Notes under the pieces: model-generated
The model's database searches: none
What the model was told of the DNA's origin: nothing
What the model saw: the letters and a program-made list of their open reading frames with translations, nothing else
Assembly (NCBI GenBank): GCA_040753215.1
Contig: JBFMEZ010000025.1
Location: 5,528-69,527 of the forward strand
From: Candidatus Micrarchaeota archaeon
GTDB taxonomy: Archaea > Micrarchaeota > Micrarchaeia > Anstonellales > Bilamarchaeaceae
Direction of reading: 5' to 3'
DNA: 64,000 nt
Made by a program: the position numbers and the translations under genes
In this document: positions 3,239-47,891 of the stretch, piece by piece
Layout: each line of letters opens with the position of its first letter
Position numbering within the stretch: the stretch's first letter is position 1

Positions 3239-3323
3239 ATAAATGTGTTAATTTATGTTTAAATATCTATGCTTTGCTGTGGAAACCGTTAAAAACACAA
3301 AAGTCCCGATATGCCTGAGTGGT

Positions 3324-6438: not shown

Positions 6439-6516
6439 CAGGCCAAAAGCACCACGGAACCTGATTTTGCAGACGTAGCAACTGGAAACCCGAAACTGGG
6501 AACGAAATCAATGATT

Positions 6517-6588
6517 TGGGCCCGAAGGGAATCGAACCCCTGGTCTCTACCATGTCAGGGTAGCGTCTTGCCATTCGACTACGGGCCC
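6517..6588 (-). tRNA. tRNA-Val (anticodon GAC)
   Basis: Reverse complement reads GGGCCCGTAGTCGAATGGCAAGACGCTACC-CTGACAT-GGTAGAGACCAGGGGTTCGATTCCCTTCGGGCCC-A. It has a 7-bp acceptor stem, the GG D-loop, anticodon loop CUGACAU with U33 and A37, and a GGTTCGATTCC T-loop. CCA is not encoded. Confidence 0.9.
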
Positions 6589-8494: not shown

Positions 8495-9067
8495 GTGGAC
8501 ATCGGAAAAGCGTTCGAGGGCCTTCACGAAGGCTTCGTGGTTCTGGTTATGGCGTCTCCCGACGAGTACGGGAAGGCAATCATTGATATCGTAAAGTATT
8601 TCGCGAACAGGAGGGGGCTCCCGCTCATATATGTAACGGCGAACAAGCCGTATGCGGTGCTCAGGAAGGAGCTGGAGAGGGGCAGCGCAAAGACAGATAA
8701 GATGTTCTTCATAGACATGATAACGAAGAAGGCGGCTGGGGCATCCGTGCGCGAGAAGGACTGCCTTTACATAGCGTCCCCGGACTCGCTGACCGAGCTG
8801 ACGATTGCGCTGAACAGCGCGGTTGCCGCATTGCCGCAGAAGGGGAAGGTCATATTGCTGGACAGCGTTTCCACGCTCCTGATGTACAACAACGCGGGCG
8901 CGGTCGGCAAATTCGTGCATTTCTTCACCGCGAAGATGGCGTCGTGGGATGCAGAAGGGGTGCTCGTGAGCCTGGAAGACGGGACAGATCCGATGCTTGT
9001 TTCGCAGCTAAGCCAGTTCTGCAGCAGGACCGTGCACATAAAGGGAGGGAAAGTAAAATGGGTATGA
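8495..9067 (+). CDS. RecA/KaiC-like fold protein with degenerate P-loop (hypothetical)
   Basis: VLVMASPDEYGKAI sits in the Walker A position, and KVILLDSVSTLLMYN is a Walker-B-like strand. The protein resembles an inactivated KaiC/RadB domain. GTG start. Confidence 0.4.
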   Translation: MDIGKAFEGLHEGFVVLVMASPDEYGKAIIDIVKYFANRRGLPLIYVTANKPYAVLRKELERGSAKTDKMFFIDMITKKAAGASVREKDCLYIASPDSLTELTIALNSAVAALPQKGKVILLDSVSTLLMYNNAGAVGKFVHFFTAKMASWDAEGVLVSLEDGTDPMLVSQLSQFCSRTVHIKGGKVKWV

Positions 9068-9751: not shown

Positions 9752-10063
9752 ATGTTTGAACTTCTGGGTTACGCCCTTCAGCTGGCCGGGGTTTTCCTTG
9801 CGTTCCTTGCGGCAGGGCTGGCGTTTATAATAGCGGACATGACAAAGGGCGGCGCAACGGCGCGCTCCACGAGGATGATTGCCTTCGGGCTTATGGTGCT
9901 TGCGCTGGGAATTTTCCTTACATATGCAGGGACCCTCACCGGAGCAATAGACCCGCTCAGCCCGACGCCCTGGTGGCCCCTCCTTGGGGCGGTTACTGCG
10001 CTGGGCTTCGCGCTTCTTCTCTCGGGCCTGTGGACCATGCTGAAGGCGCTGAGGGGTGCCTGA
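9752..10063 (+). CDS. small membrane protein (103 aa, 3 TM), hypothetical
   Basis: Immediately follows the previous gene (TGATG overlap) and is entirely hydrophobic. Confidence 0.45.
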   Translation: MFELLGYALQLAGVFLAFLAAGLAFIIADMTKGGATARSTRMIAFGLMVLALGIFLTYAGTLTGAIDPLSPTPWWPLLGAVTALGFALLLSGLWTMLKALRGA

Positions 10064-10890
10064 TGAACGAAATGCAGAAGAAGTTCCTTGCCGCCGGTGC
10101 GGCGCTTGTGGTGCTTTTTCTGCTCTGGGAGCTGTGGGCGGCGCCATTCCTGCTTATGAATATGGACCTGAGGGACCAGCAGGTATCTGGCGGGGTGCAG
10201 GAGCTCTGGGTTTTCCCGGAAGGGGAGGAAGGGCCGTACTTTGTGGATGTGAGGCAGGTGGAGACGATAGTGGAGGAGGCCCCGGAGAAGGTTGTGATAA
10301 ATTCCACGTATATTGAGATAGACCCGCTTACCGGCGAGCTCTCCTGGGGGCACGAAGAAATAGTGGCGATAGGCAAGGCAACAAGGATGCATACATCGGG
10401 AGGGGATGTGGAGAGGAGCGGATATGCGGCCTTCCCCCTGCATGTGGGAAAGAGGGATTATGAGATATGGTACAGGCACCTTCTCGGGAAGGGCGTCTGG
10501 CATTTTGAACGGGAGAGTGTGCGGGAAGGCCTTCCGGTTTATGTGTTCAGCTACAAAGTGGTTTCCAATGCGACAAAGGAATACCCCGAGTGGGCGCCCC
10601 ATGAAGTGGTAGTCGAGGATACGGGCGAGATGGAGGTGGAGCCGGCCTCTGGAATGGTTGTTAATTGGGTAGAAAGGTGGGAGGGGTACGTGATAAAGGA
10701 TGGGGGGAGGGAACTCATAGATGTATGGACCGGGGCGTTCTACAGGAGCACCATCATGGCGCGGGCCGGGGAGGCGGCGGAGCGGAAAAGCTTCATATTT
10801 ATTGTTGAATGGATAGTTCCAGCGATGCTGGCCGGGCTCGCGCTCCTGATGGGCCTGCTCTCCCGCATCGCAAAGGAGGAGGCGGTGTGA
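10063..10890 (+). CDS. N- and C-terminally membrane-anchored protein, paralogue A (DUF3068-like architecture)
   Basis: Start MNEMQKKFLAAGAALVVLFLLW (TM), an acidic extracytoplasmic domain, and a C-terminal TM (AMLAGLALLMGLL). TGATG overlap with the upstream gene. Confidence 0.55.
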   Translation: MNEMQKKFLAAGAALVVLFLLWELWAAPFLLMNMDLRDQQVSGGVQELWVFPEGEEGPYFVDVRQVETIVEEAPEKVVINSTYIEIDPLTGELSWGHEEIVAIGKATRMHTSGGDVERSGYAAFPLHVGKRDYEIWYRHLLGKGVWHFERESVREGLPVYVFSYKVVSNATKEYPEWAPHEVVVEDTGEMEVEPASGMVVNWVERWEGYVIKDGGRELIDVWTGAFYRSTIMARAGEAAERKSFIFIVEWIVPAMLAGLALLMGLLSRIAKEEAV

Positions 10891-11724
10891 ATGGAAGCGC
10901 ACAAGGCTCTCGCGAAAGCCGGGATTGCCGTCCTTCTGCTCATCCCTCTCTGGCATATGCTTGTGGCTGAGGAATTGTACAAAACCGGGGAGGATTTCTA
11001 TTTCTATGCGGAGGGGTTCGGGGAAAGGGAATACCTCGCGCCCGGGGCGAATGAAACCAGGGAGATGCAGGTTATAACCATCATCACCAAGAGGATTGTG
11101 GAGAGCCGCGGGGACGAAGCCAGAATGGCTTTTGAAGTGGAAAGCAGGGAGCTGGCAACCGGGGCCCCCATATTTCACGCAAGCGAGGTGCTGGATTACA
11201 ACAGGCGCACATTTTCATTCACAAAGGACGGGAGCGCTTACAACTGGTTCCCGAGAAACGTGGAGAAGAGGGCGTATGAGGACGTCTACTACTCCTCCGC
11301 CCTGCCTGTGGCGGACTACGAATTCGAAGGGGTGGAAGAAGTGGAGGGGCTGGAGGCGTATGTGTTCGGGTTTGAGGGGAGGATGGATGCCTCGGGGAAA
11401 TACCCGGACTATCCCGATGCGCGCATAACCAGGGATATGGAGGGCAGGATATGGGTGGAGCCCAGAACGGGCAGTGTGGTGGACGTGGAAGTGGAATGGG
11501 TTGCGTATATGGATGCTGAAGGCGGCCCCGTGGTGATAGACAGGGGAGGCACAGGGTACTCGGATGACACGGCTGCCATGCTCGCGGAGGAGGCTTCGGG
11601 CAGGAAAAACCACATGCGGTTTGCGCTCATATGGATGCCGCTGCTTTTCGTGTTTGCCGCAATAGCGGCGTTTGCAGCATCCTGGCTTGCTAAACCAGGG
11701 AGGGAAGGATATGGAAGCAGGTAA
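10891..11724 (+). CDS. N- and C-terminally membrane-anchored protein, paralogue B
   Basis: Same architecture as 10063-10890 (N-terminal TM, EEL/YxxxE-rich domain, C-terminal TM), directly abutting it. Tandem paralogues. Confidence 0.55.
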   Translation: MEAHKALAKAGIAVLLLIPLWHMLVAEELYKTGEDFYFYAEGFGEREYLAPGANETREMQVITIITKRIVESRGDEARMAFEVESRELATGAPIFHASEVLDYNRRTFSFTKDGSAYNWFPRNVEKRAYEDVYYSSALPVADYEFEGVEEVEGLEAYVFGFEGRMDASGKYPDYPDARITRDMEGRIWVEPRTGSVVDVEVEWVAYMDAEGGPVVIDRGGTGYSDDTAAMLAEEASGRKNHMRFALIWMPLLFVFAAIAAFAASWLAKPGREGYGSR

Positions 11725-12478
11725 GGCCGCCCTTGGGGCAGCGCTGGTGCTTTCGGCAATCCTGCTGGCAGCCGGATTTGTATGGTATTCTGAGCTGGGG
11801 GCAGATGAATTCAGGGAATTCCATGTTGCAGTGGAGATGCTCACAGTGCTCGCGGGGCTGGCAGTTTTCTATTTCGCCTACACAAGCTACGCGGCGGAGA
11901 AGAATGTGCGCGTGCTTCTGATAGCGCTCGCCTTCCTGGCGATGGCTGTTTTTGATATTTTCCATACATATGCCTTTACTGAGATAGACCGCCCGCACAC
12001 CATAACGGCCATCAATACCTCAATATACTTCTGGCTGGCGGCGAGGGTGGGCGGGGCAATCCTGCTGGGGATGGCGTTCCTGCTGCCTGGCAGAACACTG
12101 GGCGAAAGGTTCGGGAAGGCGGTGTTTGCCGCAACCCTCGTGCTAATTCCGCTTGCGGCATTCGCAATCCTTGAGAACGCAACAGAGCCTTTCCTGCCGC
12201 AGATGTTTGTTTACGGGCAGGGGCTTACGCAGCTCAAGGTTGCGCTGGAGGCCTTTGCCGCCGCTCTCTATGCGCTGTGCGCCTTTGCGGCATTCAGGAT
12301 TTGGCAGAAGAACGGGGAAGAGATTGCAATCATGTTTGCAGCTGGGCTCGTGTTCATGGCTTACAGCGGGCTCGCCCTTATGCTTTACTCAAGCCCCTAC
12401 GATTCCTTCATGGTAATCGGGCATGTGTTCAAGCTTCTTGCGTTTGGCGCATTCCTCTACGCGGCTCTGGAGCACTGA
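11711..12478 (+). CDS. polytopic membrane protein (about 7 TM), hypothetical sensor-like
   Basis: Highly hydrophobic 255-aa ORF. The start MEAGKAALG is chosen over the ORF-track start to reduce overlap with the upstream gene. Confidence 0.5.
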   Translation: MEAGKAALGAALVLSAILLAAGFVWYSELGADEFREFHVAVEMLTVLAGLAVFYFAYTSYAAEKNVRVLLIALAFLAMAVFDIFHTYAFTEIDRPHTITAINTSIYFWLAARVGGAILLGMAFLLPGRTLGERFGKAVFAATLVLIPLAAFAILENATEPFLPQMFVYGQGLTQLKVALEAFAAALYALCAFAAFRIWQKNGEEIAIMFAAGLVFMAYSGLALMLYSSPYDSFMVIGHVFKLLAFGAFLYAALEH

Positions 12479-13015
12479 TTACTGCACAACCCCGTTAAGC
12501 GTGCCCGCCTCTATATATGAGAAGCCGGTTACACGGTCCGTGTAATTTATCCTCATTACGACCTGGAAGGACGTGCCTGCGCCGGTCGTGTAGTTGAACG
12601 CGCCCACCGGGATGGTGTCGGATATCTCGCCCACGCCGAGCGAGATGTTGAGGTCTCCGGAGTCTATCATGTCGCCCGCGTATGTAGCGTTTATGGAATT
12701 CACGGAGATTGGTACTCCCACCTGGTTCTGGAGCTTCACCGAAAGGTCGCCGCCCGAATTAAGGATGAAGGCGGGGACCGCGACCTGCGTGAAAGCGACC
12801 GGCCTGTTGCCGATGAAGGAGCCGATGTCGAATATTCCCAGCACGAAAAGGGCAGCGGCTACAAGAAGAACAATGAGGAGCGCCCATCCGTATGTAATGA
12901 GGAAATCCAGGGCGGCTTGGCCCCTTCGGTTTCGGGTTTCCTGTTTTCCGTTTCCCGCTTCCGGAAACCGGGGGCCGGCAACTGGAAACCGGCTTGCAGC
13001 CTGGCCTTTTTTCAT
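12479..13015 (-). CDS. archaeal type IV pilin-like protein (class III signal peptide, DUF361-type), paralogue 1
   Basis: MKKGQAAS...RRG|QAALDFLITYGWALLIVLLVAAALFVLGIF is a prepilin-peptidase site (K/R-G|Q-x-x-x-D/E) followed by a hydrophobic helix. The leader carries an in-frame heptamer-repeat insertion (RFPVAGPRFPEAGNGKQETRN). The ATG at 13015 is preferred over the tracked 13171. Confidence 0.7.
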   Translation of the reverse strand: MKKGQAASRFPVAGPRFPEAGNGKQETRNRRGQAALDFLITYGWALLIVLLVAAALFVLGIFDIGSFIGNRPVAFTQVAVPAFILNSGGDLSVKLQNQVGVPISVNSINATYAGDMIDSGDLNISLGVGEISDTIPVGAFNYTTGAGTSFQVVMRINYTDRVTGFSYIEAGTLNGVVQ

Positions 13016-13234
13016 TTTTTTCACCGGGTGAATAATGATAATACGGATTATAAAAGTTAGCACGAGCCGTAGGAGCATCCCTGTATCTGGTCGTACGCGC
13101 ACACGTAGCCGGTGTCGGGCCCGCAGTGGTCGTAGGTGCATGGGTCGCCGTCGTCGCAGGATGGCGGGCACACGCAGCCGAGCAGCAGGAGCGCGAGGAA
13201 GAGCAGCAGGAATGCGGCGCGTATTTTCTCCATC

Positions 13235-13723
13235 TCAGCTCACCTCCCCGAAAACCGTTCCCTTCGAAGCATAAGCAAACCCGGTTGCGCGGTCTTCGTA
13301 CCCTATCTTTATCGCGATTGCATAGCGCATGTCCGGGCTGATGCCGGTGAGGTTTCCCACCGGGATTATGTTCGATACTTCGCCAATGCCCAGCCGTGTA
13401 TTTGTGCACCAGGCGGTTATGGTCTGGTTCTGGTACGTTGCATTTATGTAGTTTATCCTTATCGGCCTTCCCGCATCGTTCCTGAGCTTCAGGAGAAGCA
13501 GGCCAGAGGGCGAAACCCTGAAAGCCGGGACTGAGACCTCGCTAAACCCTGCCGCCCTGTTGCCTATGAACGAGCCGACGTCAAGTATGCCCAGGGAAAA
13601 GAGGGATGCGCCTATGAGGATGAGCAGCACAACCGCCCATCCGTAGGTCATCAGGAAATCAAGCGCCTGGCCTTTATGGTTTCCTGTTTCCGGTCTTCGG
13701 TTTCCGGAATGCATTACGGACAT
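13235..13723 (-). CDS. archaeal type IV pilin-like protein, paralogue 2
   Basis: MSVMHSGNRRPETGNHKG|QALDFLMTYGWAVVLLILIGASLF is a class III signal. Leader codons are made of GGAAACC-type repeats. The mature domain is similar to paralogues 1 and 3 (IGNRxxGF, SVPAF, INATY). Confidence 0.7.
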   Translation of the reverse strand: MSVMHSGNRRPETGNHKGQALDFLMTYGWAVVLLILIGASLFSLGILDVGSFIGNRAAGFSEVSVPAFRVSPSGLLLLKLRNDAGRPIRINYINATYQNQTITAWCTNTRLGIGEVSNIIPVGNLTGISPDMRYAIAIKIGYEDRATGFAYASKGTVFGEVS

Positions 13724-13765
13724 TGAGAAGATAAAGGAAGAAAAGAAAAATAAAGGAATTGCTTG

Positions 13766-14272
13766 CTATTCCACGATTCCGTTCAGCGTCCCGGTCTCCA
13801 CGTAAGTGAAGCTCGTTGTGCGGTCGGTGTAGCCAACCCTCATAGTAACCACGTAGGAGTCGCCGCTGCTCAGCCCGGTGAACGCGCCCACGTTTATGGT
13901 GCTGGAGGTCCGCCCGATGCCAAGGTTCGTGGAAGGCGCGACGCTCACCGTCTGGTTGGTGTAGGTCGCGTTTATGGAATCTATCCTTATCGGGTTCCCG
14001 ACCTGGTTCTGGAGCTGCAGCGTTAGCGTCCCGTTTGACGCGATTTTGAACGCCGGGACCGCCACCTGCGTGAAACCCACTGCCCTGTTCCCTACGAAGG
14101 AGCCGATGTCGAATATCCCGAGCACGAAGAGTGCCGCTGCAATCAGGACAATCAGCAGTATGGCCCATCCGTAGGTCATCAGGAAATCCAAAGCCGCCTG
14201 GCCCTTCCTGTTTCCTGTTTCGGGTTTCCGGTTCCCGGAAACCTCTCTCTCTTGGCTTTTTCCCGAATACAT
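13766..14272 (-). CDS. archaeal type IV pilin-like protein, paralogue 3
   Basis: MYSGKSQEREVSGNRKPETGNRKG|QAALDFLMTYGWAILLIVLIAAALFVLGIF. Same family as the two downstream genes. N-x-S/T sequons are present. Confidence 0.7.
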   Translation of the reverse strand: MYSGKSQEREVSGNRKPETGNRKGQAALDFLMTYGWAILLIVLIAAALFVLGIFDIGSFVGNRAVGFTQVAVPAFKIASNGTLTLQLQNQVGNPIRIDSINATYTNQTVSVAPSTNLGIGRTSSTINVGAFTGLSSGDSYVVTMRVGYTDRTTSFTYVETGTLNGIVE

Positions 14273-14354
14273 ACTGGTATCACCTTGGGGTGAATAGGTT
14301 AAAAAGTTTATAAAGCTTGCTCCAGAAGCCCTGTTCGGTGGGGTATTGAAGGTC

Positions 14355-14490
14355 TTGGGGTCTTGAATGGTCTACGGGTCCCGGGGGTCTTGAATGGTCT
14401 ACGGGTCCCGGGGGTCTTGAATGGTCTACGGGTCCCGGGGGTCTTGAATGGTCTACGGGTCCCGGGGGTCTTGAATGGTCTACGGGAGCT
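14355..14490. repeat. tandem repeat, 27-bp unit (TCTTGAATGGTCTACGGGTCCCGGGGG) x5
   Basis: Five head-to-tail copies at 14361, 14388, 14415, 14442 and 14469 with no spacers, so not CRISPR-like. Located in the divergent region between the pilin paralogues and the adhesin gene. Confidence 0.85.
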
Positions 14491-14531
14491 GAAGACTATG
14501 CAAGACACGGAGACTACCGGTTGGTGATGAG

Positions 14532-14909
14532 TTGGTCCAAAATCCAAAGAACCTGCGTGTCTACGGGCAGGCATTCATGCTGTCCGCTGATGTTTACAAC
14601 CGTTTCCGGGATATCAAAACAAGTCTCAGGCTCAAGGACCAGCTTTTCGGGTCTGTGTCTTCTGTCTGCGCAAACCTGGCCGAGATGGGCGCCTTTGAGA
14701 GCAAGACGCAGCAGAAGCAGAAACTCATAACCTGCGTGGGGGAATGTAACGAAGCTGAGTATTGGTTTGATTTGTGCAGGGAGGTCGGCTTGCTTGGGGA
14801 GAAGGAGCATGGGGAATTCACCGGCAAGCTCAGGAAGGTACGGGTAATGCTCTTCAACCTGCTTGGCTCGGTAAAAGAGGACATCGGAAAAGAGGGTAGG
14901 AAGGCATGA
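14532..14909 (+). CDS. four-helix-bundle protein (23S rRNA intervening-sequence protein family, TIGR02436-like)
   Basis: CANLAEM...ESKTQQ...LEEL-type helical pattern (VSSVCANLAEMGAFESKTQQKQKLITCVGECNEAEYWFDLCREVGLL) characteristic of this small protein family. Confidence 0.55.
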   Translation: MVQNPKNLRVYGQAFMLSADVYNRFRDIKTSLRLKDQLFGSVSSVCANLAEMGAFESKTQQKQKLITCVGECNEAEYWFDLCREVGLLGEKEHGEFTGKLRKVRVMLFNLLGSVKEDIGKEGRKA

Positions 14910-14962
14910 GAAGAAAAATGCAGAAACAAGACGTGAAGGCACCCAAGACCAGAAGACCACCG

Positions 14963-15150
14963 CAAGACCTGGAGACCACGGTTGTGCGGTCTCGGAGTCC
15001 TGGAGTCTCGAGAGTCTTGAGAAACGTGGGGACTACGCAAGACCCCCAAGACCTGGAGACCACGGTTGTGCGGTCTCGGAGTCCTGGAGTCTCGAGAGTC
15101 TTGAGAAACGTGGGGACTACGCAAGACCCCCAAGACCTGGAGACAGCCTC
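14963..15150. repeat. tandem repeat, 84-bp unit x2.2, directly upstream of and in frame with the adhesin start
   Basis: Copies at 14963-15046, 15047-15130 and a partial 15131-15150. Translates as PQDLETTVVRSRSPGVSRVLRNVGTTQD. Shares GCAAGAC/GGTCT motifs with the 27-bp array and with the 5' end of the pilin gene at 18230. Confidence 0.85.
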
Positions 15151-15160
15151 AAGACCGTGC

Positions 15161-17218
15161 ATGAAAGGACAGGCGAGCCTTGAGAATTTGATAATGCTCG
15201 GCATAGGGCTCGCGGTCGCGACAGTATTCTTCTATTTTGCGCTCACGATGCTGGACGACAGCATAGCCGCTTCGCAGGCGAAGGACGCGGTGAACAGGAT
15301 TGCGCAGGAGGCGGATTACGTATACGCGCTCGCGCCAGGGACGACGAGGTATGTGGATTTCACAATCCCGCGCGGGACGGAGCTGATTGAGATAAGCGGG
15401 AGGAGGGTGCACATGCAGGTGCAGCTCTCCAGCGGGCTGACTGATTTCTATGCGAACACGCAGGCTGAGCTTGTGGGGGCAATTGACCTGAACCCCGGGC
15501 CCGCGAGGGTGGTGGTGAAGCATACCGAATCGGGAAACGTGCTGGTTGGGAACAAGGAGCTTTCCCTTTCCCCGGAAGTGCTTGAATTCTACCTCCAGAG
15601 GGGGCAGGGCGACAGCGGTCAGATAAACGTAACGAATGGGGGGGAGAGGAACCTTACCGGGATTGCTGCGTACGTGCTCGGGGACATACTGGACATGGTG
15701 ACGATAACCCAGCCCTCTGCGACGCTTGCGCCCGGGCAGAACTCGAGCATTTCTGTTTCTGTCCTTATTCCTGCTGCGAAGCCTTTCGGAACCTATTACG
15801 GGAGCGTGTATGCAAACTCAACGGAAGGGAGCTGGGACGAGACTGCGGTAAAGATTGTGGTGAGCGGGGGGGCGGCTGTTTCATGCGCGCTCTCCCCGGC
15901 CGTTGCGAACGTTTCGATAGGGTTCACGCAGGATTTCACGAGCACGTGCTATGATTCCGGGAGCTACGAGACAACGTGCCAGAACCTGAACTGGTATTCA
16001 GATGCGGGGGACATGATTCCATCCACTTCTCCTACGGGAAGCACTCTCTATGTGAATACGTATGGGACCCTGGTTAATGCGACCTCAGGCTCTTTCACTT
16101 GCAGCGCTTCGCTGAATTATCCGGATGCGAACGGGCCTCTTGTGGCCAATCTTACCTACTATCCACCTTCTCCGCTCAATGCAACCGCGAACATAACCGT
16201 GAATGCTACGGGCGACGATAGCACCACCGGCGGCTCCACCATAAAGATGTGCAGGGTGAACGTGGACTCGGGAACATGGATGAACATGGATGCCGTGGAC
16301 GGGAGCTATGACGAGGTTGTGGAGCCGGTCACAAAAAATATAGGGAATTATTCCTCGGGAAACCATACGATATACGTGCAGTGCCAGGATTACTACAACA
16401 ACTGGGGGCCGGTTTCGAGCACCACGTTCTTCGTTACGGATACTTCGGGCCCGAGCGTGAGCAACATATTCATAGACCCTGCGGGGGTGTGCAACCTGGA
16501 GACCGCAACCGTGTATGCGACCGCGACGGATACGGGTGGGATAGTGAGCATGTGCCAGTTCAGGCTGGATGCGGGCGGATGGAGCAACATGGAGGCGGAT
16601 GATGGGGCGTATGATGAGCAGACGGAACTGGTGAGATACTACCAGACCTCCGGCTTCACTGCGGGGAACCATACATTGTGGGTGAGGTGCACGGACCAGT
16701 ACAACAATACAGGAACCCCTGCAAGCCAGGTGGTGGCCATTCCCACATGCAACCCCGAGCTTTTCATGAACCCCGGATTCGACACCTATACCGGCTCGGT
16801 GAACAATGCGAACTGGCAGTTCTGGAACGAGGACAGGTTTAGCGGAGGGATTCTCGCCCCGGACGATGGGAGGACGATATTCGGGACATCGGTGCTTATG
16901 GCAAATGCGCAGATATGGCAGGGAGTTAGCATCAGCGGGTCTACGAATTATACGATGAGGGTGTGGGTGAAGAGCAGCAGGCCGCTCTCGGTGCCGATGA
17001 AATGGGGGGCGAGGGACAACAGCGGAAGGTGGCTGCAGCCTGGCGGAGGATGGGCAACGAGCACGTATTATTTCACGCAATATGTGAGTTCCTCATGGAC
17101 GCAGTTCAGCACCACGTTCGTAACGAGGGCGGGGGCGAACGCGGTCAGGATATACTACAGGATGGACACGCCTCCGGGGTACATATGGATAGATGATGCA
17201 AGCCTGAGGCGGACTTAG
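15161..17218 (+). CDS. large pilin-like surface adhesin: class III signal peptide, repeated beta-sandwich (CARDB/Ig-like) domains and a C-terminal carbohydrate-binding-module-like domain
   Basis: MKG|QASLENLIMLGIGLAVATVFFYFAL is a textbook DUF361-type prepilin signal at ATG 15161. The tracked ORF starts at 14906 and runs through the 84-bp repeats without a stop, so a long leader is possible. It is Thr/Ser/Asn-rich with many N-x-S/T sequons. The C-terminal GFDTY...NWQFW...YTMRVWVKS...YYRMDTPPGYIWIDD resembles CBM_4_9. Confidence 0.7.
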   Translation: MKGQASLENLIMLGIGLAVATVFFYFALTMLDDSIAASQAKDAVNRIAQEADYVYALAPGTTRYVDFTIPRGTELIEISGRRVHMQVQLSSGLTDFYANTQAELVGAIDLNPGPARVVVKHTESGNVLVGNKELSLSPEVLEFYLQRGQGDSGQINVTNGGERNLTGIAAYVLGDILDMVTITQPSATLAPGQNSSISVSVLIPAAKPFGTYYGSVYANSTEGSWDETAVKIVVSGGAAVSCALSPAVANVSIGFTQDFTSTCYDSGSYETTCQNLNWYSDAGDMIPSTSPTGSTLYVNTYGTLVNATSGSFTCSASLNYPDANGPLVANLTYYPPSPLNATANITVNATGDDSTTGGSTIKMCRVNVDSGTWMNMDAVDGSYDEVVEPVTKNIGNYSSGNHTIYVQCQDYYNNWGPVSSTTFFVTDTSGPSVSNIFIDPAGVCNLETATVYATATDTGGIVSMCQFRLDAGGWSNMEADDGAYDEQTELVRYYQTSGFTAGNHTLWVRCTDQYNNTGTPASQVVAIPTCNPELFMNPGFDTYTGSVNNANWQFWNEDRFSGGILAPDDGRTIFGTSVLMANAQIWQGVSISGSTNYTMRVWVKSSRPLSVPMKWGARDNSGRWLQPGGGWATSTYYFTQYVSSSWTQFSTTFVTRAGANAVRIYYRMDTPPGYIWIDDASLRRT

Positions 17219-17677
17219 ATGGTTTTCAGTTCCCAGTTGCCAGTTTTCGGAAGCCGGAAAGCGCAGGCAAGTATTGAGTTTACAATAATGGCCTTCTTTT
17301 CGCTCATGCTCCTGCTGGCGGCAACATTCATCTACTCCTGGCAGAGCGCGGAGATTGCGGAGGCGCGCACTTTCTCGGAGATGCGCTCCATCTGCTCCTC
17401 GCTCTCCGCGCGGGTCTCCGGGCTTGTGATGGCTGGAAGCGGGGCGAGTGTGAAGCTGGATTACCCCGAGAAATTGTATGGGGACAACTATTCAATATGG
17501 GTGCAGGGAAACGAGAGCATAGTGAAGGTCATAAGGACGGACGCGCTTGGGGAGGTTTCATCGGTCGGGTGCTACCTGAAAACGAGGGGGGTTTCGAACG
17601 GGACTTCGTATGCATTTTTCGCCGGGGCGAACGATACGCTGAGGAATGATGAAGGGGTAGTTGTATTCGGGAGGTAG
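17219..17677 (+). CDS. archaeal type IV pilin-like protein (class III signal), paralogue 4
   Basis: MVFSSQLPVFGSRKA|QASIEFTIMAFFSLMLLLAATFIY. The leader codons are heptamer repeats. Starts one nt after the adhesin stop (TAGATG). Confidence 0.65.
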   Translation: MVFSSQLPVFGSRKAQASIEFTIMAFFSLMLLLAATFIYSWQSAEIAEARTFSEMRSICSSLSARVSGLVMAGSGASVKLDYPEKLYGDNYSIWVQGNESIVKVIRTDALGEVSSVGCYLKTRGVSNGTSYAFFAGANDTLRNDEGVVVFGR

Positions 17678-17682
17678 GGAGA

Positions 17683-18243
17683 GTGCTGGGCACTGGAAAC
17701 CGGAAACGGGAAACTGGAAACAGGAAAGGTTACGCGACGGGCGTGGACTTCGTGCTCTCAATACTCATATTCTCGATAGTGCTTGCATACTCCATTGGCT
17801 CGTATTACTACTATCTTGGGGAATACCGGGCGGTGGAAGCGAGGAAGAACCTTGAGGTTTCGGCGCTTGCGCTTACGGACACGCTGCTCAAAAGCCCGGG
17901 GATTCCGGGAGACTGGGAGGCGGCCGCGGATTGGGAGGAATGGATGGAGGAAGAGGAGGAGGAAGAGGAGTGGATTCCCACGGGCCTGGAATCCATAGGG
18001 CTTGTGCGGAGGGCGAATGTGCTCGAGCCGGCGAAGGTCTTCGCGCTGGATATGATGGACTATAATTATTCCAGGGAAGTGCTTGGGATTGGGGCGGATT
18101 ATTTCCTCTACATAACAACCGTGGGCGGGATTACAGTGATGGAGAAGGGGGTGCGGATGGAGAACGCGAGCGTCATCTCGGTGAGGAGGATGGCGCTGTA
18201 CAACGGGACGTACGCATGGGTGACTTTGGATGTTTATGGATAA
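17683..18243 (+). CDS. pilin-like protein (class III-type signal), paralogue 5
   Basis: GTG start preceded by GGAGGT 7 nt upstream. MLGTGNRKRETGNRKG|YATGVDFVLSILIFSIVLAY. The leader is repeat-encoded and an acidic EEEEEEE stretch follows. Confidence 0.55.
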   Translation: MLGTGNRKRETGNRKGYATGVDFVLSILIFSIVLAYSIGSYYYYLGEYRAVEARKNLEVSALALTDTLLKSPGIPGDWEAAADWEEWMEEEEEEEEWIPTGLESIGLVRRANVLEPAKVFALDMMDYNYSREVLGIGADYFLYITTVGGITVMEKGVRMENASVISVRRMALYNGTYAWVTLDVYG

Positions 18244-18295
18244 GGATCGTCTTGGAGTCTTGAGTAGTCTCCATGTCTCCCGAGACTTGAGGACC

Positions 18296-18757
18296 ATGCA
18301 AGACACGAAGACCCCAAAGACGCGGGGACTAAACAGGAAAGGGCAGGTATTCACCATCGATGCCCTTCTCTCGGTCACGGTCCTCCTGCTTTTCATCTCC
18401 GCACTTGTTGGATTTTCGGTGAGCGGGAGGTTTGTGCGCAGCAGCATGCACGATGAGAAGCTCGCAGAGGACGTGCTCGTGGTTCTGGACGAGAACGGGC
18501 TGCTCACAAGGAACGCCACCTACCTCAATGCGACGCTTTACAACATCCTGGACGGGACCAGGCACTACGGGGTGGAAACCAGCGACTACGAATACCACGG
18601 GGGCAGTTTCGTCCTGGTGGGGAACGGGAGCGCGGGGGAGGTGCCGGCGGAATTTGATGAAGTGAGCGTGAGCGAGAGGAGCGCGGCAAGCTACGAGCCG
18701 GGGAAGGGGCCGCAGTTCGCGAACTTAACTATTGTGAGGCTGTATATATGGAGATGA
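18296..18757 (+). CDS. archaeal type IV pilin-like protein, paralogue 6
   Basis: MQDTKTPKTRGLNRKG|QVFTIDALLSVTVLLLFISALVGF. The ORF track extends to 18230 through sequence related to the 84-bp repeat, so the start is uncertain. Confidence 0.6.
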   Translation: MQDTKTPKTRGLNRKGQVFTIDALLSVTVLLLFISALVGFSVSGRFVRSSMHDEKLAEDVLVVLDENGLLTRNATYLNATLYNILDGTRHYGVETSDYEYHGGSFVLVGNGSAGEVPAEFDEVSVSERSAASYEPGKGPQFANLTIVRLYIWR

Positions 18758-19599
18758 GGGGGAAGCAGGGGCAGGCAGGCCGAAACCGGAAAGGTTTTAC
18801 CGCCACGCTTTCCACGCTGCTGCTCCTCTCATCGGTTGTGCTGCTGCTCATGCTCATACTGCAGGTGGAAGGGAGGGCGGATAAGGAGAACCTGGACATC
18901 GCGCGGCTCGGGATAATAAACAGCATAGATACGAACATAGGCGGGATGGCCCGGGAGGTGTACTCGCAGTCGGGATTCGTGATTGCGGGCGCGGGCGGGG
19001 AGGTGAACATAAGCGAGGACCGCTCCGCGTCCGGGAAGCTCTCGCAGAACCTGGGGGCGCTTGAGGCGTGGTGGGATGCAAGCAGGAGTGCGAACATAAC
19101 CCTGGAAATACCCAACGATGCGAAGACGCCGCTCTTCTGGATTATGCCGCAGAACATAAGCGTGGAGATAAAGCCGGGGAAGACAACGGTGCTGCCCCAG
19201 GATGCTCCGGAGAGCGCCGGGCAGGTAGAGGCGTATTCCGTTTATGAGATAACAACCTGCGCAAACCTCTCCGCGCAGTGGAACAACCTCTCGCTCGGGA
19301 GCGGGCCGGGCGCGGTGAATTTCACCATCAATTTCACGTGCAGCAATTACACCTACAACGATTTCAGGCAGCTCAATAAGTATGGGTACAGCGAGCTCGT
19401 GCTGCAGGAGAATGCGTTCACCCCCCTGCTCACGGTGAGGGTTTACTCGCCCGCGAAGATGGAGCTGGAGAAAAACAAGCCCCCCACTTATTTAAATTTG
19501 GCGGTAGAGGTGAATGGCAGCGCGAGGGTTGAGATGCCGGGTGTGCTGAACATAAGCATCGGAGAGGCGAGAAGGGACGGGAGGGTGGTGGTAGGGTAG
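18748..19599 (+). CDS. pilin-like protein (class III-type signal), paralogue 7, 283 aa
   Basis: MEMRGKQGQAGRNRKG|FTATLSTLLLLSSVVLLLMLIL, with an N-glycosylation-sequon-rich extracellular domain. Confidence 0.55.
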   Translation: MEMRGKQGQAGRNRKGFTATLSTLLLLSSVVLLLMLILQVEGRADKENLDIARLGIINSIDTNIGGMAREVYSQSGFVIAGAGGEVNISEDRSASGKLSQNLGALEAWWDASRSANITLEIPNDAKTPLFWIMPQNISVEIKPGKTTVLPQDAPESAGQVEAYSVYEITTCANLSAQWNNLSLGSGPGAVNFTINFTCSNYTYNDFRQLNKYGYSELVLQENAFTPLLTVRVYSPAKMELEKNKPPTYLNLAVEVNGSARVEMPGVLNISIGEARRDGRVVVG

Positions 19600-19650
19600 A
19601 TGTTTCCGGTTCCCTGTTTCGGGTTTCCGGAAACTGGCAACGGGGAACTG
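19600..19650. repeat. inverted heptamer-repeat array (GTTTCCN)n...(GGAAACN)n forming a potential hairpin
   Basis: GTTTCCGGTTCCCTGTTTCGGGTTTCCGGAAACTGGCAACGGGGAACTG, between the pilin 7 stop and the CBS gene start. Confidence 0.7.
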
Positions 19651-19652
19651 AC

Positions 19653-20303
19653 ATGAACGGGGAAATGAAGGTAAGGGACATCATGCGGAAGGACTTCATA
19701 TACCTTGATGAGGAGGAGAAGCTGGACGCGATAATAGAGAAGTTCGCAAAATACGGCATCCACGAGGCGCCGGTGCTGAGCAGGGGGGAGCTGAGGGGGC
19801 TCGTGTCCGACAGGGAGATTGCGGATGCCCTCCTGAAAAAGAGGGCGCTTCCTTTCCTGAGGGGCAGGGAGCTGCTTTCCGCGGAAAAGGCGAAAAACAT
19901 AAGGGCACGGGACATACTGAACAGGCATTTCCTCACGCTCGAGCCAGGCATGGAGCTCGTGGATGCGATAATAGACATGGCGCGCAGGGAGACGAACGTT
20001 ATCCCGGTAGTGGAGGGCGGGAGGGTGCTGGGGATAGTGACCGGGAAGGACGTGGTGGGCTACGTGGCGAAGAAATTCATAAGCCACGAGGCGGAGGAGA
20101 AGGGCGGCGAGGGGCTGCAATCCGCGGTGGATGCGGTGCTTGCGCTCGTGAAGGAGAGGAAGAAGGTCTCTGCTGAGGAGGCCTCGAAAAAGCTCGGGAT
20201 TTCCAGGGAAAGGGTTGAGGCGATAGCGAAATCCCTCGCAAAGCACGGGCTCGTCGAGGTGAGGTATACGATAGGCGGAAGGATGGAAGTGAGGGGGATC
20301 TGA
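19653..20303 (+). CDS. CBS-domain pair protein with C-terminal winged-helix-like domain
   Basis: Two CBS repeats (VRDIMRKDFIYLDEE..., ARDILNRHFLTLEPG... with GIVTGKDV) and a C-terminal KLGISRERVEAIAKSLAKHGLV HTH-like segment. Confidence 0.65.
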   Translation: MNGEMKVRDIMRKDFIYLDEEEKLDAIIEKFAKYGIHEAPVLSRGELRGLVSDREIADALLKKRALPFLRGRELLSAEKAKNIRARDILNRHFLTLEPGMELVDAIIDMARRETNVIPVVEGGRVLGIVTGKDVVGYVAKKFISHEAEEKGGEGLQSAVDAVLALVKERKKVSAEEASKKLGISRERVEAIAKSLAKHGLVEVRYTIGGRMEVRGI

Positions 20304-21775
20304 TGGCCCAGCTGGAGGAATATGCGGTAAGGAGCGAGGAGATGGAGGGGAAGGTCACGGTGGCGCGCGGGCCGGAGGATTACGTGCCCAGGTACAGCCT
20401 GCAGGTGCAGAAGCTCTCCGGGCCTACGGCCGCATACCTGGAAGACGTCAAGAACGAGCTGCTCAAGAGGATTACAATAGGGACGAGGGAGCTTACCGAG
20501 CTCAGCGCGCTCGAGGCGCTGAAGGCGGAGATAAAGAGGAATGCGGTGAAGCTGCTCAAAAGCGGCCTTCCGGGGGAGAGCGAGGATGATTACGCCTTCT
20601 TCGCATCGAAGATAGTGCAGGACATGGTGGGGCTGGGGGACCTGGAGTTCCTCATAGCTGACGACTGGCTGGAAGAGATATGCGTAAACAGGGCAGGGGA
20701 GCCGGTCTGGGTGTACCACAGGAAATACGGATGGCTGAAGAGCAACGTCATAATACCGGACGAGGCGCAGGTGAGGAACTACGCGGCCGCGATAGGGAGG
20801 AAGGTGGGCAGGCAGATAACGATACAGGACCCGCTGCTCGATGCGAACATGGTCACGGGGGACAGGGTGAACGCGACGCTCTCGCCGGTGTCCATGCTGG
20901 GGAACACCATCACAATAAGGAAATTCGCGAGGAAGCCATGGACGATTACGGACATGCTGAAGCTGAACACCCTTTCCTACGAATCCGCGGCCTTCCTCTG
21001 GCTGTGCATGGAATACGAAATCAACATCCTGGTGGGGGGCGGGACCGGAAGCGGGAAGACCTCCTTCCTCAACGTGCTCACCGCGTTCATGCCCGCGAGC
21101 CACAGGCTGGTCAGCATAGAGCAGACGCACGAGATAAAGCCGCCGAAGCACCTCCAGTGGGTGCCGATGGTGGTGAGGGAGCCGACGAGCGAGGGGAAGG
21201 GGGAGGTCTCCATGCTGGACCTCATGATAAATGCGCTCAGGATGAGGCCGGACCGCATAATAGTGGGCGAGGTGAGGAGGGCGGACGAGGCGGAGGTGCT
21301 CTTCGAGGCGATGCACACCGGCCACAGCGTGTATTCCACGCTGCACGCGGAGACCGCGAGGGAGACCCTGAAGAGGCTCACGCACCCCCCGATAGACATC
21401 CCTCCGGTTGTGCTCGGCTCGCTGCAGCTGATAGCGGTCATGTACAGGGACAGGAGGGCGAACGTGAGGAGGTTGTTTGAGGTGGTGGAGCTCCTGCCGA
21501 GCGAGGAGAGGGAGCCGATGAGCAGGACGCTCTTCAGGTGGAAGCCGCTGAAGGACCAGGTGTTCAGGGAGGAGGCGAGCGTGCGCGTGCTGGAGACGCT
21601 GAAAACCTTCACAAGGATGGACGAGAAGGAGATAGGGAGGAGCATAGCGGAGAAGGAGGAGATGCTCAGGTGGATGGTGAAGAAGGACGTAAACGCGGTG
21701 GACGCTGTCGGGAAGCTCGTGGCGGATTACTACATGGAGCCGGAAGCCGTGCTTGCAAAGGTGAGGAAGAAATAG
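20303..21775 (+). CDS. type IV pilus / type II secretion family assembly ATPase (archaeal PilB/FlaI/ArlI-like, VirB11 superfamily)
   Basis: ILVGGGTGSGKTSFLN Walker A, RIIVGEVR Walker-B region and a His box (MHTGHSVYSTLHA). 490 aa with the N-terminal domain typical of FlaI-like ATPases. TGATG overlap with the CBS gene. Confidence 0.85.
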   Translation: MAQLEEYAVRSEEMEGKVTVARGPEDYVPRYSLQVQKLSGPTAAYLEDVKNELLKRITIGTRELTELSALEALKAEIKRNAVKLLKSGLPGESEDDYAFFASKIVQDMVGLGDLEFLIADDWLEEICVNRAGEPVWVYHRKYGWLKSNVIIPDEAQVRNYAAAIGRKVGRQITIQDPLLDANMVTGDRVNATLSPVSMLGNTITIRKFARKPWTITDMLKLNTLSYESAAFLWLCMEYEINILVGGGTGSGKTSFLNVLTAFMPASHRLVSIEQTHEIKPPKHLQWVPMVVREPTSEGKGEVSMLDLMINALRMRPDRIIVGEVRRADEAEVLFEAMHTGHSVYSTLHAETARETLKRLTHPPIDIPPVVLGSLQLIAVMYRDRRANVRRLFEVVELLPSEEREPMSRTLFRWKPLKDQVFREEASVRVLETLKTFTRMDEKEIGRSIAEKEEMLRWMVKKDVNAVDAVGKLVADYYMEPEAVLAKVRKK

Positions 21776-21782
21776 GTGTCGT

Positions 21783-22667
21783 ATGGGCGCGAGGATTCCG
21801 TTCTTTGTCCCGGAAAAGGCCTCCTACCCGCTGGGGAGGCTGTTCGCGGGGGTTGTGCAGCCCTTCACGAGGCTGATGCCCGAGCTCGGGGAGAGCCTTC
21901 CGGTGCTGGGGATAGAGCACGACGAGGCGGAGTATACCGGGGCTGCGCTGGTGAACGCGCTGTTCGCGGGGGTTGTGCTCGGCGCCGCATTCTACATGGT
22001 CGCGGTGAGGGTGGGCGCCGCGGAGAGCATACGCGTGCACGGGAGCCTGATCACGGGGCTTGCAATCTTCCTCATGAGCCTCGCATACCTCCTCGCGTTC
22101 CCGGTGTGGGTGGTGAGGAGGAGGGCGGACGAGATAGAGGAGAACCTCCTGTATGCGGTGAGGCACATCATGGTGCAGACGACCGCGGGGGTGCCCTTCT
22201 TCGAGGCGCTCTCCTCGGCCGCGTCCGGGTACGGCCCGGTTTCGGCGGAATTCAGGAACATCGTCAACCAGGTGAACGGCGGGAAGGACCTGGCGGATGC
22301 GCTTGAGGAGAGCGCGGCGAAGAGCGCCTCCAAATATTACAAGAGGATACTGTGGCACGTGGCGAATTCAACGAGGTCCGGATATAACATAGCGGACATA
22401 ATGAAGGAGCTGGTGACCTACCTCGCATACGAGCAGCAGATAAGGGTGAAGAAATTCGGCTCCGAGCTCAACGTGATGTCCCTGTTCTACCTCTCCACCT
22501 GCGTGATACTGCCCACGATGGGGCTGATACTGGCCGTGATACTTTCCTCTTTCGCGGTCGTTTCGCTCAGCCCCACGCTGCTCGGGGTTTTTGTATTCGT
22601 GATAGCCATATTCAACCTGATGTTCCTGGGGATGGTGCAGTCGAGGAGGCCGAGGGGGCTCATATGA
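21783..22667 (+). CDS. TadC/FlaJ-like pilus assembly membrane protein (T2SS-F domain), first of two
   Basis: Polytopic membrane protein with a cytoplasmic helical domain, directly after the ATPase. This is the PilC/TadC/FlaJ platform architecture. Confidence 0.65.
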   Translation: MGARIPFFVPEKASYPLGRLFAGVVQPFTRLMPELGESLPVLGIEHDEAEYTGAALVNALFAGVVLGAAFYMVAVRVGAAESIRVHGSLITGLAIFLMSLAYLLAFPVWVVRRRADEIEENLLYAVRHIMVQTTAGVPFFEALSSAASGYGPVSAEFRNIVNQVNGGKDLADALEESAAKSASKYYKRILWHVANSTRSGYNIADIMKELVTYLAYEQQIRVKKFGSELNVMSLFYLSTCVILPTMGLILAVILSSFAVVSLSPTLLGVFVFVIAIFNLMFLGMVQSRRPRGLI

Positions 22668-23620
22668 ATCCTGTTAAAAGCTATGTGAATTACATACGGC
22701 AACTCCTGGCGTACTGCGACATCTCCGCATCGCCCAACAAGTTCGCCCTCTTCACGCTATGGTTCCCCTTCCTGACCGCGCTCATAATCTCGGTTTTCTT
22801 CCTCAGGGAGCAGGGGCACATCCTCTTCGCGGTGGGCGCCGCCGCATTCGTGGCGGCGGAGGCTGGGATATTCGGGTTCCTCATCCTCGCAAAGAACAGG
22901 AGGGCCGAGGCGGCGGAGGAGGCGATGCCGGACTTCCTGCTGCTCGCTTCAAACAACATAAGGAGCGGGATGACCCCGGACAGGGCGCTGATAGCATCGG
23001 CGAAGGACGAGTTCGGGGTGCTGAGCAGGGAAGTCATGCGGGTGATGCGGGAGACGGTCTCCGGAAGGCCTTTTGAGGAGATGCTGATGAAGGTCACCGA
23101 GAGGATAGATTCGCGGACTATTGAGAACACCGTGAGGCTCGTTGTCGAGGGGATGTATTCGGGCGGGGAGCTCCCCTCTCTCCTTGAAAGGACCTCCTAC
23201 GACATAAGGACGATGAAGACGCTCAGGAAGGACGTGCAGGCGCTCATAGTCACGTACCAGATGTTCATAGCGTCCGCCGTGATGTTCGGGGCGCCTATCC
23301 TCTTCGCGGTGGCAACGCACATAGTTGAGATAATGATCGCGCTGAGGGCAAAGATAACAATAAGCGGGCTTGCCGTGGCGGGGGGGCTGATACCGCTCGG
23401 CAGCGCGGCCGGAGTGAGCGCCGACACGCTCATGCTGTTTGCGGTGAGCGCGATATTCGTGAACTCCCTCTTCGCATCGGTTGCGATAGGGCTCATTTCA
23501 AAGGGAAGGAAGGTGGAGGGGCTGGGCTATTTCCCGCTCGTGTTCCTGGTCTCGCTGGCGTTCTTCTTCCTTGTGAGGCTCGTGCTCAAGAGCGCCCTCG
23601 GCGGCGTCCTGCCTGTATAA
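22664..23620 (+). CDS. TadC/FlaJ-like pilus assembly membrane protein (T2SS-F domain), second of two
   Basis: ATGA overlap with the previous gene and a similar TM/cytoplasmic pattern. Together the two genes resemble a split FlaJ. Confidence 0.65.
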   Translation: MNPVKSYVNYIRQLLAYCDISASPNKFALFTLWFPFLTALIISVFFLREQGHILFAVGAAAFVAAEAGIFGFLILAKNRRAEAAEEAMPDFLLLASNNIRSGMTPDRALIASAKDEFGVLSREVMRVMRETVSGRPFEEMLMKVTERIDSRTIENTVRLVVEGMYSGGELPSLLERTSYDIRTMKTLRKDVQALIVTYQMFIASAVMFGAPILFAVATHIVEIMIALRAKITISGLAVAGGLIPLGSAAGVSADTLMLFAVSAIFVNSLFASVAIGLISKGRKVEGLGYFPLVFLVSLAFFFLVRLVLKSALGGVLPV

Positions 23621-27645: not shown

Positions 27646-27760
27646 CAGAAATAATAGGTGGGAATTGTTTATATGGATTTGGGAAGGATGAAAATATAGA
27701 AGAAAAGCAAAAAAGAAAAATTAGGACGAAACTGGAAACCCAAAACGGGAAACTGGAAAC

Positions 27761-47889: not shown

Positions 47890-47891
47890 TT

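Follow-up and report, generated by a model that had tools for sequence, protein, structure and literature searches.

Identification of a type IV pilus locus in Micrarchaeota

DPANN archaea spend their lives attached to host cells, by means that are poorly understood. A cluster of pilin-like and assembly genes at positions 12479–23620 of a 64,000-nucleotide stretch of Candidatus Micrarchaeota archaeon DNA (contig JBFMEZ010000025.1; the whole stretch is termed the window) raises the question of what kind of filament such an organism builds. Our analysis indicates that the locus very probably encodes a non-motile type IV pilus (T4P) of the DPANN design, which combines an ATPase, two half-platform genes and about five minor pilins. 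An open reading frame (ORF) map covering positions 10–26 kb of the window revealed three paralogous pilin genes on the minus strand (pilA1, pilA2 and pilA3) and an operon on the plus strand. The genes of this operon overlap or abut one another, and encode a large pilin, four further minor pilins (m1–m4), a CBS-pair protein with a C-terminal winged helix-turn-helix (wHTH) domain, the assembly ATPase and two TadC-like platform proteins (TadC1 and TadC2). All of them lie at the coordinates named beforehand in an initial annotation, whose gene list (pilins, CBS pair, ATPase and two platform genes) was recovered in full. Its choice of an adhesion-type T4P rather than an archaellum also stands, in view of the ATPase, a platform in two parts and class III signals on eight proteins. 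A search against Rfam found no RNA family inside the pilus locus.

All proteins of the locus were compared by tblastn with a set of 79 DPANN loci, which had been retrieved from genome collections using the window ATPase. The gene order from the large pilin through m1–m4, CBS, ATPase and TadC1 to TadC2 is kept among these loci, in which TadC1 (76 loci), TadC2 (72) and the CBS protein (44, immediately 5' of the ATPase gene) recur more often than the large pilin (36), m2 (28), m1 (21, at the same operon position), m3 (13) and m4 (9). Ranked by the ATPase, Micrarchaeota come first (77% identity in L001), followed by Aenigmarchaeota, Woesearchaeota, Nanohaloarchaeota, Altiarchaeota and others at 45–59% identity. 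Homologs of pilA are present near the ATPase operon in 46–47 of the 79 loci, located either divergently upstream (Micrarchaeota and many Woesearchaeota) or directly 3' of TadC2 (Aenigmarchaeota and others). Two loci taken as reference relatives, L080 (GCA_020052735.1) and L001 (Micrarchaeia), show full synteny with the pilus locus of the window; L080, at ~80% nucleotide identity, is collinear over a longer stretch that extends from the KaiC-like genes through thioredoxin reductase.

The assembly machinery

Profile searches of the window ORFs against Pfam and NCBIfam assigned the assembly ATPase (20303–21775, plus strand) to the FlaI/TadA/GspE superfamily, with a match to T2SSE (PF00437) at an E-value of 2.7e-35. 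Its sequence matches in the PDB are Archaeoglobus GspE2 (2OAP, 1.3e-64), FlaI (5e-55) and CpaF (1e-47). A look-up of the exact ATPase sequence found no entry. The platform is split into two halves, at 21783–22667 and 22664–23620 of the plus strand, that overlap by 4 nt; each holds a single T2SSF domain (PF00482) of the TadB/TadC-like type, with E-values of 6.2e-16 and 1.4e-12, respectively. The CBS-pair protein (19653–20303, plus strand; Pfam CBS, 1.7e-22) has a C-terminal segment (residues 157–205) with weak matches to TrmB, MarR_2 and Rrf2, all of the wHTH type, and its stop codon overlaps the ATPase start by 1 nt.

The relationship of the ATPase to FlaI brings in an alternative, namely that the locus encodes an archaellum or a rotating archaellum-like filament. 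Although the FlaI model is the best NCBIfam match of the ATPase (2.1e-82), the score of 277 bits lies under the cutoff of 550, and a platform of two half-size genes is unlike FlaJ. KaiC-like genes are found 3–9 kb upstream; however, two of the KaiC-like proteins score only 37 and 53 bits on ArlH (cutoff 215) and the third belongs to no NCBIfam family, because of which the "no FlaH" of the initial annotation holds. The ORFs scanned throughout the window gave no match to archaellin, FlaF, FlaG or FlaC/D/E, in agreement with the absence of archaellin and FlaF/G noted initially. The top fold match of pilA3, detailed below, is described as a "flagellar-like" archaeal pilus, whereas Micrarchaeota, as members of the DPANN, were reported to lack archaella (PMC5498576). 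Altogether, an archaellum is extremely improbable, and the adhesive T4P is retained.

Structure of the major pilins

The three major-pilin paralogs share an N-terminal (K/R)G↓QA(A)LDFL(I/M)TYGW motif (↓, predicted cleavage site) that precedes a hydrophobic helix, and have a mature length of 144–146 residues. The 178-residue prepilin pilA1 (12479–13015, minus strand) starts with a 32-residue leader that contains a dyad array of heptamer repeats, and continues with G↓QAALDFLITYGW. The leader of pilA2 (13235–13723, minus strand) is 18 residues long and ends at G↓QALDFLMTYGW, whereas that of pilA3 (13766–14272, minus strand; 144 residues when mature) comprises 24 residues, encoded in part by four heptamers. 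A separate TATA-like box and GGTGA Shine-Dalgarno sequence precede each of the three genes; the TATA-like box of pilA1 reads TTTTATAA.

An AlphaFold (AF2) model of pilA3, computed from a 46-sequence alignment with a mean predicted local distance difference test (pLDDT) score of 88.6, consists of a helix (residues 22–51) and a β-sandwich head. Structural similarity search demonstrated that the model most resembles the archaeal T4P pilin of Pyrobaculum calidifontis (PDB 8FK7, E-value 1.5e-4), followed by pilins of P. arsenaticum (6W8U) and Haloferax (8FJ5). pilA3 is thus predicted by this model to adopt the "lollipop" fold of pilins. Sequence search recovered 112 homologs of pilA3, none with a protein name; the source, where given, is Micrarchaeota.

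All eight pilin-like proteins of the locus possess a (K/R)(G/A)↓(Q/F/Y) site followed by ~20 hydrophobic residues. They contain 1.6–3.5 N-glycosylation sequons per 100 residues, compared to 0–0.4 in cytoplasmic proteins of the window, a richness that the initial annotation had pointed out for the large protein and that suggests, as a sequence feature, an extracellular location.

A putative Cys-rich lipoprotein of 58 residues, with the lipobox LLLGC, nine cysteines and a CDDGDPCTYDHC motif, is encoded between pilA2 and pilA1 (13057–13233, minus strand), starting 2 nt past the pilA2 stop codon. It is kept at the equivalent site in L080 (60 residues), and one further tblastn match, in L009, lies away from pilin genes. 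This ORF may encode a small pilus-associated lipoprotein.

Minor pilins and the large modular pilin

The four smaller minor pilins are encoded on the plus strand downstream of the large pilin. The N-terminus of m1 (17219–17677), RKA↓QASIEF, fits the QxSxE class III motif. m2 (17683–18243) has a GTG start, a leader encoded by five GGAAACN units and the site RKG↓YATGVDF. In m3 (18296–18757, or from an alternative ATG at 18230), the leader reads MQDTKTPKTRGLNRKG↓QVFTIDA, with the site RKG↓QVFTIDA, and contains a solo copy (18249–18312) of the same GTCTTG/CAAGAC dyad as in the inserted element described below. m4 (18748–19599) is a protein of 283 residues with ten sequons and the site RKG↓FTATLS.

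The large pilin gene spans 14906–17218 (770 residues) or 15161–17218 (685 residues) on the plus strand; at the latter start the pilin-type N-terminus MKG↓QASLEN was confirmed, and ATG 14906 aligns with the large-pilin start codon of L080. The protein comprises an N-terminal pilin helix and head, five to seven β-sandwich domains and a C-terminal jelly roll similar to CBM_4_9. In the AlphaFold model (pLDDT 77.5), the helix covers residues 6–56 and leads through a small β-head into the chain of β-sandwiches, and a jelly-roll-like β-domain occupies residues 555–678, in line with the structure that had been expected of this protein. A Foldseek search of the whole model against the PDB returned only generic strings of Ig, FN3 or cadherin domains and no specific adhesin. 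The Ig/CARDB-like repeats and CBM-like domain of the initial annotation agree with the model and in part with the profile searches: the β-sandwich string and the jelly roll appear in the model, and CBM_4_9 was detected in six of the 13 family members at E-values of at most 0.01 (best 5.2e-7), but CARDB in only one; one member matched a class III signal model.

About nine full-length homologs of the large protein, at 54–88% identity, are encoded on Micrarchaeota contigs where a source is given. The N-terminal module (K/R)(G/A)↓Q(A/S)S(L/I/M)E is far more widespread, being kept at the first operon position in the 36 DPANN loci that possess this gene, and its family aligns profile-to-profile with that of pilA across 38 columns. 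ORFs of the large-pilin family range from 134 to 1499 residues (~126–1477 when mature), with the N-terminal module constant; they are of ~130–165 residues in most Aenigmarchaeota, Woesearchaeota and Nanoarchaeota loci and of 560–1500 residues in most Micrarchaeota loci. The conserved module and the varying length therefore indicate a conserved minor pilin to which lineage-specific extracellular modules have been added. By its sequence, the large protein is predicted to be a modular adhesin pilin and the conserved first minor pilin of the system.

In Streptococcus sanguinis, PilB and PilC carry a pilin module fused to adhesive modules (vWA or lectin), which are presented on the filament or at its tip with the aid of other minor pilins; the tip adhesin PilY1 is not itself a pilin. 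The large protein differs from these proteins in being archaeal and unrelated in sequence, and carries Ig-like repeats and a CBM_4_9-like jelly roll as its extension. Bacterial minor pilins suggest by analogy that it probably sits at the pilus tip or in the priming complex. Of the roles proposed initially, an adhesin-like modular pilin agrees with the above data and the tip is where we infer it to be, whereas nothing was found in support of a sheath.

The carbohydrate-binding-like module would also suit a short pseudopilus or bindosome-like assembly, such as the Bas system of Sulfolobus or the bacterial type II secretion system, in which the large protein and m1–m4 would be exposed on the cell surface and serve substrate capture or secretion. 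Of the eight class III proteins, only three are major pilins of the filament type, and the ATPase matches the BasE model (1.3e-40). The score on that model is 139.6 bits, however, far under the cutoff of 1000. Moreover, three small pilin paralogs whose fold resembles that of archaeal T4P adjoin the operon and co-occur with it across DPANN, and scans of the locus show no solute-binding-protein domains and no ABC transporter genes. We consider a pseudopilus improbable, and favor the extended, adhesive T4P.

Relation to known pilus systems

Systems of this kind have been recorded. The genome of the Micrarchaeota archaeon Mia14 encodes two T4P systems and lacks an archaellum, and its pilus loci are linked to jelly-roll LamG-like proteins (PMC5498576). 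In clades 1 and 2 of Makarova et al. 2016 (PMC4858521), tadC is present twice, together with five or more minor pilins and adhesin-like proteins of large size, and type IV filament (TFF) "system 1" was placed in DPANN in a 2026 preprint (bioRxiv 10.64898/2026.04.22.720090). The window locus therefore belongs to a known kind, and is a DPANN/Epd-like "two-platform" T4P.

Comparison with the Epd pili, i.e. TFF system 1 or clade 1 (EpdA-L of Methanococcus maripaludis), revealed in both a single ATPase of the FlaI type and a platform encoded by two genes, in addition to at least five minor proteins with class III signals in a single operon, class III proteins of large size and adhesin-like character, Gln at position +1, the QxSxE motif (in two proteins) and occurrence in DPANN; this likeness is one of gene content and sequence motifs. 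However, the Epd major pilin has ~70 residues and no head, in contrast to the mature 144–146 residues and β-sandwich head of the window major pilins. The window locus also lacks an EppA peptidase and a MinD/FleN gene, and has the CBS-wHTH gene preceding that of the ATPase.

The euryarchaeal clade 2 T4P (PilA and PilB3C3 of Haloferax) has two tadC-like genes in many loci, several interchangeable PilA paralogs and a β-rich minor pilin of variable length (the Ig-like arCOG02911) that different systems have in common, all similar to the window, and Mia14 has a clade-2-type system. Nevertheless, the pilins of clade 2 are encoded in trans, whereas those of the window adjoin the ATPase, and the window pilins match no haloarchaeal pilin family of Pfam except for a weak match of m3 to DUF7288 (E-value 0.026). 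The bacterial Tad/Flp system shares the CpaF/TadA-like ATPase and a platform of two single-T2SSF proteins (TadB and TadC); it differs in that the pilus locus has no secretin, TadZ or TadD, and the window pilins are not Flp-like and bear archaeal class III signal peptides.

Several points weigh against the assignment to a T4P. One of them is the insertion with which the operon begins. None of the eight pilin-like proteins of the window is matched by Pfam PF04021 or by an NCBIfam pilin model, and their only profile matches are two weak ones (the above DUF7288 for m3, and DUF4064 for pilA1). The proposed check by hidden Markov models thus confirms the ATPase, the two platform proteins and the CBS protein but none of the pilins, which neither Pfam nor NCBIfam recognises. 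Searches of pilA3 and the large protein against PDB sequences found no relative of solved structure. For the large protein, the start codon is ambiguous between 14906 and 15161, and CBM_4_9 (PF02018) scores 18.8 bits (E-value 0.002), below the gathering threshold of 25.9. Its place at the tip, a glycan as its ligand and a regulatory function of the CBS protein are proposals only. In addition, the membrane ORFs of the 64-kb window yielded no match to Peptidase_A24 (PibD/FlaK/EppA); in view of this missing PibD/EppA-type gene, to call the pilus locus "complete" was an overstatement. Genes of class III prepilin peptidases are usually located elsewhere in the genome. Mia14 has one FlaK-like prepilin peptidase, which is encoded away from its pilus loci (PMC5498576).

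Taking the locus as an adhesive T4P, we propose the following working model. A prepilin peptidase encoded elsewhere would cut after the (K/R)(G/A) dipeptide, and the ATPase and the TadB/C-like platform pair would pull the pilins out of the membrane. The five minor pilins of the operon, i.e. the large protein and m1–m4, would make up a priming or tip complex, and pilA1, pilA2 and pilA3, each expressed from its own TATA box and Shine-Dalgarno sequence, could provide interchangeable major subunits. The ~130-residue pilin module would anchor the large protein in the filament, and the Ig-like stalk and lectin-like C-terminal module of this protein might then bind a glycan on a surface or host cell, resulting in the attachment of a DPANN episymbiont. 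The CBS-wHTH protein would be coupled to the ATPase in translation, and may act as a nucleotide-sensing regulator of assembly or transcription.

A VirB4-like module and the question of DNA exchange

Another possibility is an Ups-like aggregation pilus, induced by DNA damage, that would work together with a candidate DNA-transfer module at 47–53 kb of the window; the initial annotation saw in the two an echo of the Ups/Ced pairing. To our knowledge, Ups pili are restricted to Sulfolobales. The module at 47194–52875 (minus strand) does encode a VirB4/HerA/CedB-like ATPase of 1004 residues (47892–50906), with DUF87 and AAA_10 domains and a LAGLIDADG intein inserted just past the Walker A region. 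On the CedB model (6.6e-26) it scores no more than 91 bits, where the cutoff is 700, and the VirB4-like CD1110 model gave 3.5e-19. The adjoining genes encode an 81-residue two-helix membrane protein (52630–52875), a 309-residue polytopic membrane protein, a protein of ~245 residues with an N-terminal membrane segment and a 231-residue coiled-coil protein without a Pfam match. The small and polytopic membrane neighbors had no family or PDB match, and the 81-residue protein found nothing meaningful in the PDB. These genes may form a minimal conjugation-like or Ced/Ted-like module.

DNA exchange through T4P in Mia14 has been speculated upon by Golyshina et al. (PMC5498576). Nevertheless, within the pilus locus no UpsX-like gene was found, the ATPase has no UpsE match and the platform proteins score 23–30 bits on UpsF (cutoff 400). 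The two modules are ~24–25 kb apart, with housekeeping genes in between, which amounts to no linkage. The reference loci L001 and L080 reach only to about 31 kb and 26 kb in window terms, and are therefore uninformative on the 47–53 kb region. A VirB4/CedB-like module is thus present as had been noted, but nothing ties it to the pilus locus, and the Ups/Ced echo is left unsupported. We regard an Ups-like pilus as quite improbable, and an adhesive T4P remains our assignment.

An inserted cassette at the start of the operon

The spacer between pilA3 and the large pilin gene measures 890 bp in the window, compared to ~70–120 bp in L080 and L001. The extra DNA, which separates the large pilin gene from the shared promoter, contains a gene on the plus strand (14532–14909) for a 125-residue four-helix-bundle protein of the 23S rRNA intervening sequence (IVS) family, hereafter IVS protein (IVP). 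Its matches to PF05635 (3.6e-16; 59.7 bits, cutoff 33.8) and TIGR02436 (1.2e-15; 57.7 bits, cutoff 24) exceed the curated cutoffs, and its stop codon overlaps ATG 14906. A protein identical to it is encoded on a Micrarchaeota contig at NCBI. Two tandem arrays found by repeat search flank this gene. The left arm (14357–14486, plus strand) consists of 4.8 copies of a 27-bp unit (GGGGTCTTGAATGGTCTACGGGTCCCG), and the right arm (14953–15144, plus strand) of 2.3 copies of an 84-bp unit of the CAAGACC type; with ATG 14906 as the start codon, the right arm would be translated in the frame of the large pilin. The arrays are mutually inverted, with 32-nt arms that are 78% complementary, and duplex folding yielded a pairing energy (dG) of -183.7, against -126.9 ± 10 in shuffles (z -5.6).

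By tblastn, the IVP gene is absent from the pilus locus in L080, L001 and all 79 DPANN loci, and other IVP homologs of Micrarchaeota stand in unrelated contexts. In L201 (3860–4400) and L203 (3880–4410), short tandem arrays in inverted orientation again flank the IVP gene, although their sequence is not that of the window arrays. Folding of the flanks at five other IVP loci, in a crude test, found none that exceeds its shuffles as the window does (z -0.6 to -2.4); the hairpin architecture is therefore firmly supported in the window only.

Intervening sequences of 23S rRNA carry an ORF for an S23p/four-helix-bundle protein between inverted sequences that pair. The cassette is similar in that a PF05635 ORF lies between inverted, pairable sequences, but it precedes a protein-coding operon, and in an archaeon. 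Avd, a protein of diversity-generating retroelements, is also a four-helix bundle. Such a retroelement was considered for the cassette and dropped, given that no reverse transcriptase was found among the scanned ORFs and that the repeats are tandem and inverted, not a pair of template and variable repeats.

Heptamer arrays in pilin leader sequences

The heptamers seen in the pilin leaders are part of a dispersed repeat. The pattern GGAAACNGGAAAC, i.e. two units with one mismatch allowed, matches 48 times in the window against 0.36 expected, and arrays of at least three units occupy ~25 distinct places. Arrays of the heptamer lie, for example, at 32–99, 6484–6621, 6910–6944, 12928–12990, 14209–14236, 17221–17262, 17695–17729, 19601–19649, 27727–27761, 38518–41971 and 42579–42599. 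Many arrays are dyads, in which (GTTTCCN)n precedes (GGAAACN)m. None of the six frames of the unit contains a stop codon. Arrays lie within the leader-coding part of pilA1, pilA2, pilA3, m1, m2 and m4; others are located in the m4–CBS spacer, around tRNA-Val and upstream of PCNA. The array of the m4–CBS spacer (19601–19649) consists of four GTTTCCN units followed by three GGAAACN units, and a similar dyad is found at the equivalent place in L080.

Comparison with L080, the closest relative, showed that the arrays differ in copy number and the leaders in length. The leader of pilA3 has 24 residues in the window but reads MYARKG↓ in L080, and that of pilA1 has 32 residues compared to 16. In L080, an offset of 28 nt, the length of four heptamers, puts the start codon homologous to that of m2 out of frame. 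Throughout the pilA family the median leader has 6 residues, versus 18, 24 and 32 in the window.

A metagenome scan for four consecutive GGAAACN units returned at least 120 contigs, none of which resembles the window, with a GC content of 33–70% among the 45 inspected. Only nine of 155 such arrays are followed by a hydrophobic segment, which rules out the arrays as a general pilin-specific signal; occurring in unrelated contigs without association with pilin-like N-termini, they are therefore a general dispersed element. Similar repeats are the short tandemly repeated repetitive (STRR) heptanucleotides of cyanobacteria, which form dispersed tandem arrays, and the palindromic elements inserted in frame in Rickettsia genes. 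Unlike the cyanobacterial STRR, the arrays of the window also lie inside coding sequences (leaders and linkers), and in an archaeon.

One may tentatively combine these observations with the inserted cassette, in that the pilin genes would be contingency loci by way of the heptamer arrays and the IVP family would be part of a mobile hairpin element that invades protein-coding operons of archaea; we regard this joint reading as conceivable but rather unlikely. Under it, the arrays would expand, contract and insert rapidly, and slippage by 7 nt would toggle single pilins or alter the length of their leaders. A leader peptide that is cleaved off might offer a safe harbor for a selfish or regulatory repeat.

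Repeats of related types are also found away from the pilus genes. An ORF of 2758 residues (34224–42500, minus strand) contains HEAT repeats (PF13646, 6e-12) and long Pro/Ala-rich linkers, and eight heptamer arrays are translated in frame in its disordered linkers, as PVSGS or PETGN. Beside purD, a composite repeat (46929–47036) consists of two copies of a 26-mer (ATGGCGGAAACCAGAAGGATTCTGCC) and two of a 22-mer, followed by GGAAACN units. A relative of this composite repeat in L080 (10260–10350) forms an in-frame insert in the m4 leader (…GWRNPEGFCQTSPQRCGNPKRGTGNRKG↓F).

Genomic neighborhood

Upstream of the pilus locus, the plus strand encodes three KaiC-like/DUF7504 ATPases (3255–4079, 6831–7628 and 8495–9067), two PgfA-like PorA/DUF3068 envelope proteins (9973–11724) and a stand-alone MASE3 membrane sensor (11672–12478). 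From the KaiC-like gene at 6831 onward, this block is kept as a unit in L080 and is absent from L001. It may represent a regulatory or envelope neighborhood of the pilus. A HepT/MNT (nucleotidyltransferase) toxin-antitoxin pair is encoded at 7635–8443 (minus strand). A tRNA gene at 33271–33414 (plus strand), detected by Rfam only, spans 144 nt and probably contains an intron.

Implications for DPANN attachment

The locus provides a concrete and conserved candidate for the attachment of DPANN archaea, namely a pilus with a first minor pilin that is extended in Micrarchaeota. The Ig-like stalk and lectin-like end of this pilin point to glycan recognition at the pilus tip, and make it a protein that can be tested. 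As this type of locus has already been catalogued, the gain is incremental in that respect. The less expected part, which the initial annotation had not named, consists of the leader-borne repeat arrays and the inserted IVS-protein cassette. We know of no earlier case of slipped-strand phase variation of archaeal pilins; if the arrays vary within populations, they would represent the first, and together with the cassette may help to explain what the four-helix-bundle IVS proteins do.

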